Part shown: one piece after another, positions 4,829-12,574 of the stretch
How the letters are laid out: each line of letters begins with the position of its first letter
How positions within the stretch are numbered: position 1 is the first letter of the stretch
IMG/VR virus record: IMGVR_UViG_3300032318_000443
Location: 1 to 32,332 of that record
DNA length: 32,332 nt
Direction: 5' to 3' (one strand)
Origin: a virus
Taxonomy: Duplodnaviria > Caudoviricetes
Notes under the pieces: generated by a model
What the model was told of the DNA's origin: nothing
Database searches by the model: none
What the model saw: the letters and a program-made list of their open reading frames with translations, nothing else
Position numbers and translations under genes: made by a program

Positions 4829-6347
4829 ACATTTCTAATGGGTCTTGGGTTGGTTTCTTACCAATAAACTGCATTAATGGGTCACCAAATATATCGCCGA
4901 ATTGGGTATATGAAACGGTCTCATCACGGGGGACATCAAGACCATATTGGTTAAAGCGCTCTGGCTTACCTGGTCTCCCGTTTTCATACATGGTTCTCTC
5001 GTACTGTTCCGCAAATGGGTAATTAGCCCTTCGCTCCTCCATAGACAGCTTTTCTCTGGTCTGAGTTAGTCTTGACTCGGCCTCACCAGCCAAGCGCTTG
5101 TAAGCCTCAACATCTGACATATTTTCAAATGTTTTTTTCTTTTCCCCTAGTTCTCGGAACTTACGCGCAGCCTCATCGGTCTTTTTGATCTGCGTCATAG
5201 CCCGTTTCTGGGCGTTTTTAGCATCCCGCAGGTTGTCGTAAGGCAGGTTTTGATACTTTGCCTCAGATGAAATGCTACGGTCTTGAATGTATTGTGCCGC
5301 GCCCCTAAACCATTCGTCTCTGGCTGCGCCTGGCTTTTTAGGTTGTGGGCCAGCCTCGCGGCGGTAATCGTTGCCGTACTTATACCAATCGGATAGATTG
5401 TAAATAATCCTTGGTTTAATGTTGTCTCGGGTCGCAATATCACCAAGCCGAATCATATATTCTGATCTGGCAGCTGCGCCGTACTCATCCCAATATTTAC
5501 GGTTAATAGCAAACGGGGTGGCCAATGGCGCTAATTCAGACTTAATCTGGGCATTAGCAATCAGTTTTGCAGATTCTGGACTACCGCCGCGCCCAAAGTT
5601 TTCGGTCTTTTGAATGGCGTGTTGGATTTCATGCAGCAAAGTTGACCTGGCTGCATTGGCTTGGTCATCCAAGGATTGGCCAGCATAAGTTGCGCCGCCA
5701 GTAGTAACTAATTTTTTACCTTCATCAAATGAGCCGCGAATGTCTTGGCGGTTTTCTTTCGCAATCCTTAGATTGTTTACAAGGTTTGGATAAGCCTCCT
5801 CTAAGGCATCATGCCTAAATACAGAGGTCAATCTGGCATTTTGCGGCTGCATTATTTGTTCGTACCTTGACGGCAATTTGCTCATGTCCAGTACAGCGCC
5901 GGTGTCTGGTATCTCCTGGCGCCACTTCTGATCTAAGCCGCGGGCCGTCATGGTTTCGCGCCAAATGTCAGCTGGTCGCGCCCCAGCTTTCTCCATTTCT
6001 ACGGCTTTTTCGTAATTTGCTTTATTCCAAGCAGATGACTTAGGTCCGATAAACATACCCAGCGCATTTGCCGGAGCCCCTCTACTGGCTGCAAATCCAC
6101 CACCGGCCACATTCATACCAACATTTAATGCCTCTTGCGGGGTAATTTCTTCGCCTTGGAGCGCTCGGTATGGTGTTTCTATCGCTTTAACGATGTCAAC
6201 CAACATCTGTGGCGCCACCCAATCTTTGTAATTAATGGGTTTACCAAAAACAGACCCGCGCCCCTCAGATGGCAAACTATTAGCTGGCCGCGGCAGAATA
6301 GATAGCCGCTCAACATTGGGGTCAAATCTGTCTGACAGCCGTGCCAT
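4803..6347 (-). CDS. LPD23-like (large polyvalent protein-associated) domain plus zincin-like HExxH metallopeptidase protein
   Basis: IWRETMTARGLDQKWRQEIPD, HDALEEAYP, STLLHEIQHAIQKTENFGRGGSP and YKRLAGEAESR motifs resemble LPD23-associated proteins. Confidence 0.75.
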   Translation of the reverse strand: MARLSDRFDPNVERLSILPRPANSLPSEGRGSVFGKPINYKDWVAPQMLVDIVKAIETPYRALQGEEITPQEALNVGMNVAGGGFAASRGAPANALGMFIGPKSSAWNKANYEKAVEMEKAGARPADIWRETMTARGLDQKWRQEIPDTGAVLDMSKLPSRYEQIMQPQNARLTSVFRHDALEEAYPNLVNNLRIAKENRQDIRGSFDEGKKLVTTGGATYAGQSLDDQANAARSTLLHEIQHAIQKTENFGRGGSPESAKLIANAQIKSELAPLATPFAINRKYWDEYGAAARSEYMIRLGDIATRDNIKPRIIYNLSDWYKYGNDYRREAGPQPKKPGAARDEWFRGAAQYIQDRSISSEAKYQNLPYDNLRDAKNAQKRAMTQIKKTDEAARKFRELGEKKKTFENMSDVEAYKRLAGEAESRLTQTREKLSMEERRANYPFAEQYERTMYENGRPGKPERFNQYGLDVPRDETVSYTQFGDIFGDPLMQFIGKKPTQDPLEMFIGLPKSR

Positions 6348-6657: not shown

Positions 6658-7118
6658 TACGCACCATGCACAATTGCAAAGTTAATGATGACTGCCTCAG
6701 ACAATGCGCCGCCTGTCATGTTACGCAGGGTAATTACTGCGGAGCCCGCTGCCATGCTTGAGATATAAGTTGTGTAAGCTGCTGCAGTACCGCCACCAGA
6801 CACATTGACAATAATTGCGTCTTTTGTGCCGATTGTGGAGTTGGTCAATGTAAATGACACGGCGGTATTGGCTGCTAGTTCCGCACCGTTCATTGTGATA
6901 CGGCCAATGCTATTGTTTAGTGTTACGCCGCCAGTCTTAGCACCAGATTGGGTAACCGCGCCGCTTGCAGATGCGGTGTAACCAATTTCGCTACTTGCAT
7001 AAACGGTTGTGCCTACTACGGTTGACGGTGTAGATGCCCCGATTGGGGAGTTATCTACTGAACCGCCTACGATTTGTTGATCTTCGTAAGCTACACCGAT
7101 TGATTTTGAATTTGACAT
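6657..7118 (-). CDS. Probable virion structural protein (fibre/decoration-like)
   Basis: 153 aa, G/S/T/A-rich beta-type composition; AAAGGA RBS; shares an IG-x-S/T-TP motif with the long tail fibre. Confidence 0.6.
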   Translation of the reverse strand: MSNSKSIGVAYEDQQIVGGSVDNSPIGASTPSTVVGTTVYASSEIGYTASASGAVTQSGAKTGGVTLNNSIGRITMNGAELAANTAVSFTLTNSTIGTKDAIIVNVSGGGTAAAYTTYISSMAAGSAVITLRNMTGGALSEAVIINFAIVHGA

Positions 7119-7134
7119 GATTAATTCCTTTTAG

Positions 7135-7419
7135 TTAACAGTTCCAATTTTTAAGAGATGCTGCTTTTCGGGTAGGCCTACCCTTTTCATCCTTCATTGG
7201 CCCAGGCATTCCGCTCATCCGCGCACAAAAAGACTTTTTACGACCTTCGTCAGCTTTTGTTTTAGGGTTTGGAGCAGGTGCTTTAAGGTTTGCATTATTT
7301 TTTGCATTGTATTCCGCCCTTCCTTTTGCGGTCAGTCCCGCGCCCTTTTCGGCTGGGTTGTAATTCTTACCCTTACCGGTAGTGGTGCGCGCAATCGGTT
7401 TGTTAGTGGTTTTGGGCAT
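7135..7419 (-). CDS. Basic protein, DUF6321-like
   Basis: 94 aa from ATG 7419 (GGAGG RBS); GLTAKGR...NLKAP...RKKSFCARMSGMPGPMKDEKGRPTRKAASLKNWNC. Confidence 0.75.
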   Translation of the reverse strand: MPKTTNKPIARTTTGKGKNYNPAEKGAGLTAKGRAEYNAKNNANLKAPAPNPKTKADEGRKKSFCARMSGMPGPMKDEKGRPTRKAASLKNWNC

Positions 7420-7705
7420 TATCTGCCTCCACGAAACAAACATCCTTCCAAGACATAACGATGAGTTCCTCGCCATCAATCTCAAAGCGAGGGTAAGACA
7501 GGTAATCTTCCATGCCGCCAAATCGGATGCGCTGCCCAATCTCAATGGGGTTTGGAATGAGCCTGCCCTTCTTATCAATCTCGCCAGGACCCACGGCCAG
7601 TACCTCGCCGATATTAGGTAACTCATCCATGATGACTTCAATCACCTGGCTTTTGACCCGCTCAATGGGTCTTACAACAATTCGGTCACGCAGAGGTCGT
7701 ATCAT
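7403..7705 (-). CDS. groES: Co-chaperonin GroES-like protein
   Basis: 100 aa from ATG 7705: MIRPLRDRIVVRP, GEVLAVGPG, EIDGEELIVM..KDV. Confidence 0.88.
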   Translation of the reverse strand: MIRPLRDRIVVRPIERVKSQVIEVIMDELPNIGEVLAVGPGEIDKKGRLIPNPIEIGQRIRFGGMEDYLSYPRFEIDGEELIVMSWKDVCFVEADNAQNH

Positions 7706-7889
7706 TTTTTTTGCGCCTTTTGGGTGCCGGTACGGGTATGGATGCCAACTCCTCACAAATCGGCAGCGGCTTTGCATCGACTTTATGCTCACCGCACCAC
7801 ATTCCGGCCTGTTTGGTTACTGACTCAGGGTAGCGCCGGCAATGGCCAAACTGCGTACCTTGAAAAAATAAACAGTTTCCGCAATTCAC
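7686..7889 (-). CDS. Small Cys-rich metal-binding protein
   Basis: CGNC..F...GHCRRYP...WCGEH; GTG start overlapping the upstream TGA. Confidence 0.7.
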   Translation of the reverse strand: MNCGNCLFFQGTQFGHCRRYPESVTKQAGMWCGEHKVDAKPLPICEELASIPVPAPKRRKKNDTTSA

Positions 7890-9264: not shown

Positions 9265-9998
9265 AATAGCGTCTCCTGTTCAACTTGCACAAAGTTCCAT
9301 GTAGCAGGAGCATTGTGAGCCTCTATTCTGGATCGCATTACTTGCGCTCTGGCCTCTTTTGTTGGCGGCGGGTAATTGCCGTTTTTCCAATGTTTATCAA
9401 TTCCTACATTTCTGCCGATATTAGTGCTATCTGTTGAACTAAATGGAAATTTAGTAAACACTTCTGGGTCCAGCATTCTAAGCCCATGCAATTTGCAAAT
9501 TGGCCGACCCATATCATCACAAATTACCCGCATAGCCGCGCCCATCCTTGACCACCAAGCATTGGTGCCAACTGTGGCGTATTCGCCAGAACTACCTAAA
9601 GAAACCCGTACATAAGTATTTGCCAGCTGCTCTAGTCTTTCTAAAGACTCATGCAAATGCCATACCGGAGAGCCAAACCAATAAGGCAATGGGCAATCTT
9701 TAAGCAAAGCATCATTGTCAGCTTCGGCGCCATCAATCACATCTGGAATAACGGCAAAATCGCAAGATGGAACTTTTTTAAGATTTAAGGCCCAATCGTA
9801 AAATTGAGTCCAATCTTTTATAGGTTTATCTGACTTCCAAGCGCTAAACGCGCCGTTGTCTAATGCAAAAGACTGGCAAACCTCTATTGCCGTGCCAACC
9901 TGGTCAGGATGCGCAAAAGACACAAATGCATGACCAGCTTGTACCGCATAGTTGGCAACCGTAGCCGGTGTTATTGGTAGGCCGTGATAGTGAATCAT
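9261..9998 (-). CDS. TGT/DpdA-like TIM-barrel protein (putative base-exchange DNA-modification enzyme)
   Basis: FALDNGAFS (cf. TGT DSGGF), IPDVI, PVWH, KLHGLRM, FSSTDSTN (cf. second catalytic Asp motif). The CDS is secure; the function is inferred. Confidence 0.6.
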   Translation of the reverse strand: MIHYHGLPITPATVANYAVQAGHAFVSFAHPDQVGTAIEVCQSFALDNGAFSAWKSDKPIKDWTQFYDWALNLKKVPSCDFAVIPDVIDGAEADNDALLKDCPLPYWFGSPVWHLHESLERLEQLANTYVRVSLGSSGEYATVGTNAWWSRMGAAMRVICDDMGRPICKLHGLRMLDPEVFTKFPFSSTDSTNIGRNVGIDKHWKNGNYPPPTKEARAQVMRSRIEAHNAPATWNFVQVEQETLF

Positions 9999-10375
9999 GC
10001 AGCCTTAACCGATCCGCGTAGCACGGCAACTTTAAACAGATAAGGCTGTTCAAATTGGGACTCAAATATGCCCAATTCTTTGCCTTTAGCCACAATACCG
10101 GGCCATGATTCGTGCCATTCTTTGCCGTCAACCACGCCAGGCAGGGTTACTTTTAATTCGTCAGACCAGCGCTCCTGACGCAGCCAAGTCGCTGGGTAGC
10201 ACACGAACTGGCCATCATTCTTGCGCCATTGATCCGAGCGCATCTGCTGCCGAATAGCATCCAATAGTTCTGGCAGCGGTGGCCGAATAGATTGGGTCTG
10301 AGTCCATGCCTTACGCGCATCGCCTTTGGCCACGCGGCGCGGATACAGTTTCCAAAATTCATCAAAGTCTGTCAT
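9995..10375 (-). CDS. Phage replication-protein C-terminal-like domain protein
   Basis: FDEFWKLYPRRVAKGDARKAW...YPATWLRQERWSDE is typical of the C-terminal domain of phage replisome organisers; here it is stand-alone (126 aa). Confidence 0.7.
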   Translation of the reverse strand: MTDFDEFWKLYPRRVAKGDARKAWTQTQSIRPPLPELLDAIRQQMRSDQWRKNDGQFVCYPATWLRQERWSDELKVTLPGVVDGKEWHESWPGIVAKGKELGIFESQFEQPYLFKVAVLRGSVKAA

Positions 10376-10744: not shown

Positions 10745-10764
10745 TTTTGTTCTCCTTCTTGCAG

Positions 10765-10793
10765 AGAATAAATGATTAGGAAATAGTTTGCAA
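10765..10793 (-). promoter_or_regulatory. Putative sigma70 promoter for the leftward middle operon
   Basis: Minus strand TTGCAA (10793-10788), 17 bp spacer, TATTCT (10770-10765), just upstream of the AAGGAG RBS of 10744. Confidence 0.65.
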
Positions 10794-10809
10794 CTAAGGA
10801 TTTGTTGGT

Positions 10810-11050
10810 TAATTTTGTTTATAGGTTACCCAAGGGGTGGAAACATCCACCTCAATCCCAGAGTTGCCTCCCAGATAACGCATGACGCAGCGATTCATTC
10901 ATTAAGAGTCTTGTCCCACCACTTTCCTCTTAACTATTCTGATCCCTCGCTGACAGGCCAGAACCCAAACACGGGGTGCAATGCTGGGTGTCTTTTATTC
11001 CGCGCAGCCGATTCAAGCCCTTTACTATCGTGCGGAGTACGGTCAGCTGG
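10810..11050 (-). ncRNA. Candidate structured RNA, domain 2
   Basis: Multiple helices: GCTGAC/GTCAGC, TCCGC/GCGGA, ACCCA/TGGGT, TTAAGAG/CTCTTAA, CAGCGA/TCGCTG, GAG-GCAA-CTC GNRA hairpin, GGTGGA/TCCACC; no credible ORF. Confidence 0.5.
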
Positions 11051-11051
11051 C

Positions 11052-11212
11052 AACAAAAAACCCCAAATCCTTGGGTGGTGCGGCCTTGGCGGGCATCCTT
11101 GGAATAAGTCCTCTTTAGATCAAATGACCAATTCCAAGCATTTTTCGCACCACCGAAAAATTCGGGGTTGCTGATCTTAAAGAGATTCCAACAAGTGCCA
11201 CCTTGCTGACAT
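11052..11212 (-). ncRNA. Candidate structured leader/antisense-type RNA, domain 1, ending in a terminator-like U run
   Basis: 5' hairpin CAGCAAG-GTGGCA-CTTGTTG; 24-bp stem 11169-11146 / 11082-11059 with three G-U pairs and one mismatch; inner stem CTTGGAAT/ATTCCAAG; GCC-CGCCAA-GGC hairpin; then TTTTTT. Confidence 0.65.
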
Positions 11213-11216
11213 AGCC

Positions 11217-11225
11217 ATGTTACCA
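11217..11225 (-). promoter_or_regulatory. Putative extended -10 promoter for the structured RNA
   Basis: TG-G-TAACAT on the minus strand, ~8 nt upstream of the first hairpin; no good -35. Confidence 0.45.
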
Positions 11226-11268
11226 CAGATAAATCATGGTGTATTGACTAAAAAACAACGCCATTTTC

Positions 11269-11309
11269 TAAGTGTTTACCCTAGTTTTATAGGTGGTTTC
11301 CCTAGTTTT
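11269..11309. repeat. Tandem imperfect direct repeat (operator/iteron-like)
   Basis: taagtgtttaccctagtttt (11269-11288) and taggtggtttccctagtttt (11290-11309); 21-bp period. Confidence 0.7.
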
Positions 11310-11331: not shown

Positions 11332-11360
11332 TTGAGAAATGCAAATAAACAGTTTACTAT
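11332..11360 (+). promoter_or_regulatory. Early rightward sigma70 promoter with overlapping palindrome
   Basis: TTGAGA (11332-11337), 17 bp spacer, TACTAT (11355-11360); TAAACAGTTTA palindrome in the spacer/-10; 5' hairpin CGGTC/GACCG at 11368-11385. Confidence 0.75.
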
Positions 11361-12092: not shown

Positions 12093-12350
12093 ATGGAAGA
12101 TACGCAAGCATTACATCACCAGCAGCAGTTGGAGCAGCAAGAAAGATTAGCGCAGCCAGTTTACTGCGACTACATCGCCAACATAACTAAAAAAGCCTTA
12201 AACGCTAAAGACCCATTGGCAATCATTATGGGCGCGGGTCCTGTCTTTTATGACTTGAGCCCAGAGGGTCATTTTCGTAGTACCAAAAAGGAGTTGTTCG
12301 TCATTGACTGTAATGCCCGTCATTACAAAATAACCGTGGAGGAAGTATGA
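12093..12350 (+). CDS. Hypothetical protein
   Basis: 85 aa, GGAG RBS, HQQQLEQQE N-terminus. Confidence 0.8.
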   Translation: MEDTQALHHQQQLEQQERLAQPVYCDYIANITKKALNAKDPLAIIMGAGPVFYDLSPEGHFRSTKKELFVIDCNARHYKITVEEV

Positions 12351-12574
12351 AAGATACCAAAATCAATCTAGTTGCAAATCATTTAATCACCAAACGCAAA
12401 ATAACCAGCTGGGAGGCAATCGAGCGCTATCACGCCACGCGCTTGGCGGACATTATTTATGTACTCAAGTCCGAGGGTTGGGACATCATGACCGAGATGG
12501 TCAAGCAAAACGGTGTACGGTTTGCGGTCTACCGTTACATCTCCGCGCCCCGCAAAGGGAGAAAAGCAGCATGA
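12347..12574 (+). CDS. Helix-turn-helix protein (HTH_39-like)
   Basis: HL...RKITSWEAIERYHATRLADIIYVLKSEGWDI...A.Y. Confidence 0.8.
   Translation: MKDTKINLVANHLITKRKITSWEAIERYHATRLADIIYVLKSEGWDIMTEMVKQNGVRFAVYRYISAPRKGRKAA

Follow-up and report, generated by a model that had tools for sequence, protein, structure and literature searches.

The window, a single contig of 32,332 nt, belongs to a P22-like podophage with recognisable genes for the portal, large terminase and major capsid protein, and since a related contig measures 32,336 nt it is probably a nearly complete genome. Two divergent early operons flank a gap that holds a structured RNA element, with the genes for Erf, an exonuclease and an SSB on the plus strand and a 90-aa ORF, a 126-aa replication protein, RusA and others on the minus strand (Table 1). 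A PHROGs scan of 55 ORFs, two of them shadow ORFs lying across the element, found no primase, helicase, DNA polymerase, integrase or repressor. The two ORFs overlapping the element had no PHROG match, and this, together with indels across the alignments, speaks against the element being coding sequence. Contigs that carry members of the RNA family come from MAG bins that include Burkholderiales and Sulfuritalea, which points to a freshwater betaproteobacterium as the host. The cumulative GC skew of the window is dominated by the signal of the coding strand.

Table 1 Features of the RNA element and its surroundings in the window (helix numbers are those of the alignments)
Feature	Position	Strand	Remarks
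Extended −10 promoter-like site TG-G-TAACAT	11217..11225	-	Read from the sequence; inferred start near 11210
Leader RNA	11055..11210	-	5′ hairpin 11210-11189; terminator-like stem 11169-11146/11082-11059; U6 11060-11055
Family-A structured RNA, ~230 nt	10812..11046	-	Conserved 5′ end to CTATN/A-tract 3′ end (alignments A1, A2)
P1 (11036-11033/11002-10999)	10999..11036	-	Conserved internal loop ACGATAGTAA; common to subfamily B
P1b	11019-11016/11009-11006	-	100% paired, 3/4 pairs compensatory; common to subfamily B
P2 hairpin	10963..10989	-	Conserved CACC in loop (10978-10975); 8/8 pairs compensatory (helices 3-4)
P3 hairpin TCTGG-CC / GG-A-TCAGA	10938..10962	-	6/7 pairs compensatory (helix 6)
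Pseudoknot PK1	10888..10952	-	CAGCGA 10952-10947 with TCGCTG 10893-10888; 97% paired
P4 hairpin	10901..10934	-	7/7 pairs compensatory (helix 8)
Pseudoknot PK2	10836..10920	-	P4 loop GGTGG 10920-10916 with CCACC 10840-10836
Small hairpin 10887-10879 and P5 stem of variable length	10853..10887	-	Helix 9
Conserved 3′ end CACCC-TT-GGG..CTAT(G) and A-tract	10812..10840	-	
Downstream genes' promoter-like site TTGCAA-N17-TATTCT	10765..10793	-	Conserved in window clade
126-aa replication protein	9995..10375	-	C-terminal domain of phage initiators only, without N-terminal HTH or iteron linker

Pattern scans returned relatives of the element (at least 13, 27, 120 of ~160 and 120 of ~300), part of these being chance matches. 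The full window-type element, which we call family A, was found at 208 redundant loci that reduce to 50 clusters at < 88% identity. In the window the covariance model R1 scores 159.5 bits on 11046–10873, and the runner-up site reaches 10.5 bits. Alignment A2, built without structure, holds 39 copies: core sequences from each of the 37 clusters that do not exceed 262 nt, and L125 and L163. The 13 longer clusters are left out. With the hand-drawn structure 88.3% of its cells pair, compared with 65.3% after shuffling, and compensatory changes are seen in 37 of the 42 pairs; the covariation score reaches 0.608, compared with 0.197 for shuffled and at most 0.126 for slid alignments, controls which ignore the relatedness of the copies. 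Covariation among homologues, the absence of which the original prediction had named as counting against it, is present. The other such sign, folding no better than that of shuffled sequences, is what is seen: the region gives − 68.4 kcal/mol against − 70.2 ± 4.5 kcal/mol for the shuffles (z = + 0.40), and the 50 family members have a median z of − 0.3, with 4 of the 50 below − 2. We consider that the covariation outweighs ordinary folding energy and that, judged by comparison of sequences, the conserved structure is real.

All of the helix words quoted in the original prediction were found on the minus strand where it had placed them. Its TCCGC/GCGGA arm is confirmed by covariation as TCCG/CGGA, and so are the ACCCAGCA arm and the TTAAGAG/CTCTTAA arm, whilst the hairpin P3, whose loop is the 5′ strand of PK1, had been missed. 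Copies of a subfamily, B, match R1 over the P1/P1b hairpin at 24–31 bits. The CAGCGA/TCGCTG pairing turns out to be a pseudoknot, PK1, in which all six pairs show compensatory changes in the 39 copies and which RNAalifold recovers as well. It had been predicted to alternate with a GCTGAC/GTCAGC helix, but the latter is paired in 57.8% of cells, below the shuffled value of 63.9%, with none of its 6 pairs compensatory (17 copies), and the switch loses one of its two states for lack of conservation of this helix.

The second pseudoknot, PK2, has the family form of a P4 loop GGTGR pairing with a 3′ YCACC. In the 48 of 50 clusters tested (the remaining two could not be parsed), the fifth pair is Watson–Crick in 46, as G-C in 24 and A-T in 22, where the permuted mean is 24 and a value of 46 was reached in 0 of 5000 permutations. 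The local GGTGGA/TCCACC hairpin of the original prediction (10851–10836) does pair the 3′ CACC, but is one of two partners, competing with PK2 for the CCACC at 10840–10836; a local hairpin of YCACC is found in 33 of 50 members if folding is restricted to the terminal 34 nt, without a shuffle control. The alternative pairing of the 3′ YCACC may give a possible switch. A kissing interaction between the P2-loop CACC and the P4 loop was considered and set aside as unproven: the bases are 99% pairable but nearly invariant, with one compensatory cell, and the fifth pair forms about as often as expected by chance (8 of 48 versus 6.5). The predicted GNRA hairpin is present, but merely caps a longer stem (P5) and varies: its tetraloop is GCAA in the window and GAAA in L001 and L003.

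Upstream of the element lies a leader with a promoter-like site of its own. The extended − 10 site was missed by a consensus promoter scan; in relatives TGGTAATAT occupies its position, and their leaders, 95–165 nt long, begin just after the − 10 box. A terminator-like U-tract is found no more than ~ 45 nt upstream of the element in 36 of the 44 clusters with enough flank. A hypervariable segment of the leader at 11184–11172 is complementary to 11122–11111, inside the terminator-like stem. In the window clade the 21 leader variants have 14 different segments, with a mean cognate complement of 7.0 nt versus 4.6 nt for non-cognate combinations. More widely, 25 parsed leaders have 19 different 5′ hairpin loops, and in 16 of them the terminator stem contains a perfect complement to the loop of at least 6 nt, compared with 4.8% of 586 non-cognate pairings. 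This hypervariable pairing would suit a phage-specific attenuator, and the leader is possibly an immunity or incompatibility determinant. The architecture is widespread and has no match in Rfam. It resembles the C4 RNAs of P1 and P7, the CI RNA of P4, both antisense immunity RNAs, and the rep-leader pseudoknot of IncI/IncB plasmids in that a hypervariable segment pairs with the loop or bulge of a terminator-like stem; it differs from them in having no Rfam match in 10750–11300 and, by eye, no second copy of the target downstream. Two 21-nt direct repeats, 81% alike and kept in relatives, lie upstream of the leader promoter at 11305–11264 and are possible protein-binding sites.

Small shares of three public RNA runs were searched for the element. 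Run X1 gave a 237-nt contig on 10870–11045 and 11055–11105 with a strand switch, and runs X2 and X3 gave an identical 207-nt contig on 10886–11086. No transcript is demonstrated by these, since X2 is probably DNA, the depth is 2–3, and distant matches to other phage genes occur in the same runs.

At gathering score, neither the whole window nor 10750–11300 has a match in Rfam 15 (riboswitches, ribozymes, introns, C4, ARRPOF, PAGEV and GEBRO). In 50,697 phage records blastn found no match to this region of the window, and one of 59 nt to the member L231. The literature, covered mainly as titles and the openings of abstracts, yielded no description of the family. The structured motifs ARRPOF, GEBRO and PAGEV are similar in size (223–349 nt) and in their replication-region context, according to the part of PMC5737381 used here; they differ in being plasmid-borne and have no Rfam match in the window or in 29 related loci. 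Six motifs were absent from the three files searched of a 10,000-candidate viral RNA catalogue (PMC10690425), in which the family may be an anonymous entry. The original prediction of a novel multi-helix non-coding RNA is upheld by the covariation and the absence of an Rfam match, and on this comparative evidence the element is a real, new, widespread and uncatalogued family of structured RNA.

The 126-aa protein encoded downstream matches positions 173–262 of the 276 of phrog_9327 and positions 178–253 of the 383 of phrog_270, and its relatives are mostly ~ 126 aa long in a search restricted to 69–221 aa. Its predicted model (pLDDT 84) has no clear structural match: the top VIA hit, SPP1 G39P (Z = 4.4; 58 residues at rmsd 2.6), scores no higher than unrelated entries, and the DnaD-like 2zc2 gives Z = 3.2; Foldseek and a sequence search of the PDB were empty. 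The protein shares its C-terminal domain, and its position after divergent early promoters, with initiators of the lambda O type (phrog_270, phrog_9327 and gp40 of P19250A). Unlike these, which have an iteron origin inside the gene, it has neither N-terminal HTH nor iteron linker, and a structured RNA lies upstream instead.

This arrangement recurs. Selection on the replication protein gave 80 loci, of which 63 extend 2.5 kb or more upstream; the loci are related (57–94% identity) and not independent. In 60 of the 63 there is one RNA module, 0.5–1.8 kb upstream on the same strand, and the modules are of family A in 32, subfamily B in 5, type C in 3 and type D in 20. Two rows also have a weak 20-bit match to D, in the shared leader. 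Among the exceptions, L523 has another ORF-free stretch and then an HNH-like ORF, a downstream sequence that recurs in L525. In L553 no module was found. In the converse survey, of 146 distinct loci selected on the RNA and having at least 1.3 kb downstream, a rep domain follows in 56, of which 55 consist of the C-terminal domain only and 1 is borderline; the other 90 are without a rep domain in their short flank. No element was found near the full-length initiators of L068, L475, Pseudomonas phage AV001 and Methylophilaceae phage P19250A. There is one counter-example, the phage-like contig L220, where a family-A-like RNA (4875–5047, 50 bits) lies 2.4 kb from a full-length rep on the opposite strand at ~ 6965–7715.

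The modules that occupy the slot are different folds. Subfamily B has only the 5′ hairpin in common with family A and forms its own perfect pseudoknot, 100% paired with 5 of 7 pairs compensatory (alignment A3). Its members include L102, L116 and L166, and L121, L183, L214 and L348 have long insertions in one stem. In the end hairpin of B the G-tract is invariant, and variation is confined to the strand that it pairs with (10 of 11 pairs). The tract served to select many of the B loci; those from the earlier pattern scan, chosen without it, have it too. On either side of the end hairpin a direct repeat of 6–9 nt covaries, in 47 of 49 cases compared with 25% of 1,828 non-cognate pairs. RNA–RNA pairing explains this repeat poorly, and it would suit pairing with the DNA template. 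Type C is Betaproteobacteria-1 (RF02932), which Rfam files as an sRNA and whose name is absent from the main text of PMC5737381. It takes the identical slot, behind the same kind of leader, in the sister phages L018 (2350–2470), L521 (4083–4204) and L552 (4287–4408) at 65–77 bits; it differs from family A in sequence and fold, and the window has no match to it at its threshold of 49.4 bits.

Several further observations concern these modules. Conserved sequence in type C runs ~ 100 nt past the Rfam model and finishes in CACC-AAA-GG, an end like that of family A. Type D (L060, 2030–2260, and 19 other loci) is uncatalogued, ORF-free and conserved, and ends in GGTCTTTGG like subfamily B. A fifth ORF-free module lies behind the same leader in L523, ~ 1.3 kb upstream of rep, and in L055, with the HNH-like ORF directly after it; homing endonucleases may shuffle the RNA slot. 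A further related group (L346, L357, L403, L412, L446 and L449) has GGGTCGAAAGTCCTACGG and the same G-tract end. On a Sulfuritalea contig a B-type element (L223, 4997–5270) sits in a small phage-like island, whose six scanned ORFs gave no match to rep, primase or helicase. In L426, L397, L442, L354 and L392 the G-tract word of B, on the opposite strand, reads as Pro-Pro-Thr-Pro-Gln-Gly-like coding, a stretch that we take to be typical of the linkers of ordinary rep genes; the likeness may be a low-complexity coincidence.

From the fold, the slot and the pattern of one module per phage, which are observed, we infer both that the element is transcribed and what it does. Of the three guesses in the original prediction (conformational switch, ribozyme or replication primer) a primer fits the gene context best, and we lean, by a little, towards an RNA-primed origin resembling that of ColE1 RNA II, which would replace the iterons. 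Transcription would begin near 11210 and pass the terminator at 11060 in only a fraction of rounds, and the hypervariable pairing in the leader would likely set phage-specific control or incompatibility type. The folded RNA would then remain paired with its template around the 3′ G-run, CTAT and A-tract (10835–10812), forming an R-loop; 10812–10840 would be the region of the switch from RNA to DNA. Extension of the hybridised RNA would fall to RNase H and Pol I of the host. The 126-aa protein, which lacks the HTH, would assist in loading the helicase of the host where the strand has been opened, a task that requires no sequence-specific DNA-binding domain.

The idea of such a primer is favoured by the lack of a primase, helicase, polymerase or integrase match among the 55 ORFs, by the slot (one module in 60 of 63 loci, C-terminal domain only in 55 of 56 downstream reps), by the full-length reps of L068, L475 and P19250A that have no element, by the separate promoter that follows the RNA in the window clade, and by the invariant G-tract and covarying direct repeat at the end of B. 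It is weakened by L220, with its element and full-length rep, and by the 90 of 146 loci without rep in the short flank.

The comparison with ColE1 was tested on the record NC_001371. Neither R1 nor the second covariance model, R2, matches ColE1 RNA II, nhmmer is not significant there, and blastn finds no direct homology to ColE1. Within the 6.6-kb plasmid a matrix of the family 5′ end scores highest at 882, in the RNA II sense, with 15.2 bits against 7.8 for the next; with the matrix from all 50 sequences alone the ColE1 origin ranks third. A chain of two motifs picks 882 and 1179 (RNA II sense, origin end), and Markov controls scored as high in 11 of 400 cases with 16 unbiased sequences and in 3 of 400 with all 50, giving p about 0.01–0.03 for a test that was post hoc, chosen after the resemblance had been seen. 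A chain of three motifs is not significant (107 of 300 controls). Both words are largely kept in five further ColE1-type origins, and no motif chain was found in Aeromonas pAsa1 or in the first 4 kb of the 5.4-kb Pasteurella plasmid pIG1. The word GGGTCGG was rejected as a sign of kinship, not being conserved among the six ColE1-type origins. The RNA I model RF00106 matches ColE1 and has no match in the window, where no antisense RNA I-like gene was identified.

Like the ColE1 pre-primer, the phage RNA would be long and folded, with regulation in its 5′ portion, and it has the 5′ word ACTC-N3-ACGATAG (882 in ColE1). Its 3′ end resembles the G-run, CCTATG and A-tract of ColE1 (family consensus GGGGAACCTATG and A-tract; CCTATA in the window), and an origin-binding initiator would be needed in neither system. 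The two differ in the G-run (G3–4 in family A, G6 in ColE1), in length (~ 390 nt for phage RNA and leader versus ~ 550 nt), in the phage leader ending in a sense-strand terminator with internal hypervariable pairing, and in the phage element residing in a tailed phage beside a rep C-terminal-domain protein. Such a mode of working is thus what we propose; the tests run do not place the element within the ColE1 type, and the motif resemblance is a hint. The primer mechanism of ColE1 RNA II is described in the excerpt used here of PMC5043065 and R-loop origins of T4 in that of PMC5333043, and ColE1 replicons are reported from plasmids of five proteobacterial orders in the portion used of PMC8683028.

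A wider proposal we advance tentatively, leaning slightly against it as a whole: that in a large group of small freshwater podophages iteron origins have been replaced by at least four interchangeable pseudoknotted primer RNAs (A, B, Betaproteobacteria-1 and D), which work together with a helicase-loading protein lacking the HTH, are gated by a hypervariable attenuator that sets incompatibility or superinfection groups, and are possibly a compact, deeply diverged branch of ColE1 RNA II.

A cis-regulatory leader, in which PK2 frees a GGGG ribosome-binding site before CTATG and so switches translation of the first downstream gene, is in our view unlikely, though it accounts for several features of the 3′ end. 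GGGGA-N-CTATG resembles a Shine–Dalgarno sequence and start codon, PK2 covaries and competes with the local hairpin, and ATG stands at the CTAT(G) position in 46 of 52 unbiased copies, beginning the rep gene in L111, L217, L249 and L265 and a 64-aa ORF in L047 and L085. The rep-leader pseudoknots of IncI/IncB plasmids provide an analogue. However, 26 of the 36 complete ORFs from the conserved ATG are no longer than 30 aa and apparently unrelated, the window has ATA instead, and subfamily B and types C and D occupy the slot without the conserved ATG. The downstream promoter of the original prediction is indeed present as a promoter-like site, and TTGACA/TATAAT-type sites follow the RNA in other members by inspection. 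Because of the short ORFs, the missing ATG in the window and the separate promoter that is often downstream, translation control would not be the general role.

We favour the element acting as RNA rather than as ssDNA, since G-U pairs are frequent in the family, loops that we take to be GNRA and UUCG tetraloops are present, subfamily B has what is presumably a T-loop-like hairpin, and a promoter and U-tract terminator lie directly upstream on the same strand. These features make it improbable that the element folds on the displaced strand, as a primosome-assembly or single-strand-initiation signal read by the HTH-less rep, PriA or primase. The same slot evidence would agree with such a signal, and plasmid replication motifs may act as ssDNA according to the part used here of Weinberg 2017 (PMC5737381).

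It is likewise quite improbable that the early transcript yields a stable trans-acting RNA (a protein decoy, anti-defence or superinfection-control RNA) linked to rep by shared early timing: the self-contained, compact double pseudoknot between terminator and promoter would suit this, and L220 shows coexistence with a full-length rep, but the one-for-one swapping of four unrelated folds beside the HTH-less rep would be left unexplained. A self-cleaving or processing ribozyme, also guessed originally, we regard as very improbable indeed, for in spite of a double pseudoknot with invariant unpaired nucleotides nothing found points to one, there is no match to an Rfam ribozyme family, and by eye we see no core of the kinds we take to mark hammerhead, HDV, twister, pistol or hairpin ribozymes.

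Whatever its function, this is a widespread and uncatalogued structured RNA family. If it primes replication, the start of replication would be explained in small phages that have a truncated initiator and apparently no polymerase, primase or helicase, the orphan Rfam motif Betaproteobacteria-1 would gain a function, and the RNA modules could supply new orthogonal replicons for Betaproteobacteria. Formation of a persistent RNA II hybrid is still described as speculative in the excerpt of PMC5043065, and for that question the present family, at 230 nt and with dozens of natural variants, two pseudoknots that covary and several interchangeable folds, would make a compact comparative system.

The window also contains a queuine tRNA-ribosyltransferase-like gene (9998–9261), indicating possible DNA modification, a gene of the starvation-inducible-regulator family (8427–8071) and a GroES-like gene (7792–7403). 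An HTH_39 protein is encoded at 12347–12574. The near-palindrome AAAC(T/A)(A/G)TTT occurs both at 10789–10781, in the downstream promoter, and at 11354–11346, in the region of the divergent promoter, which suggests a shared operator.
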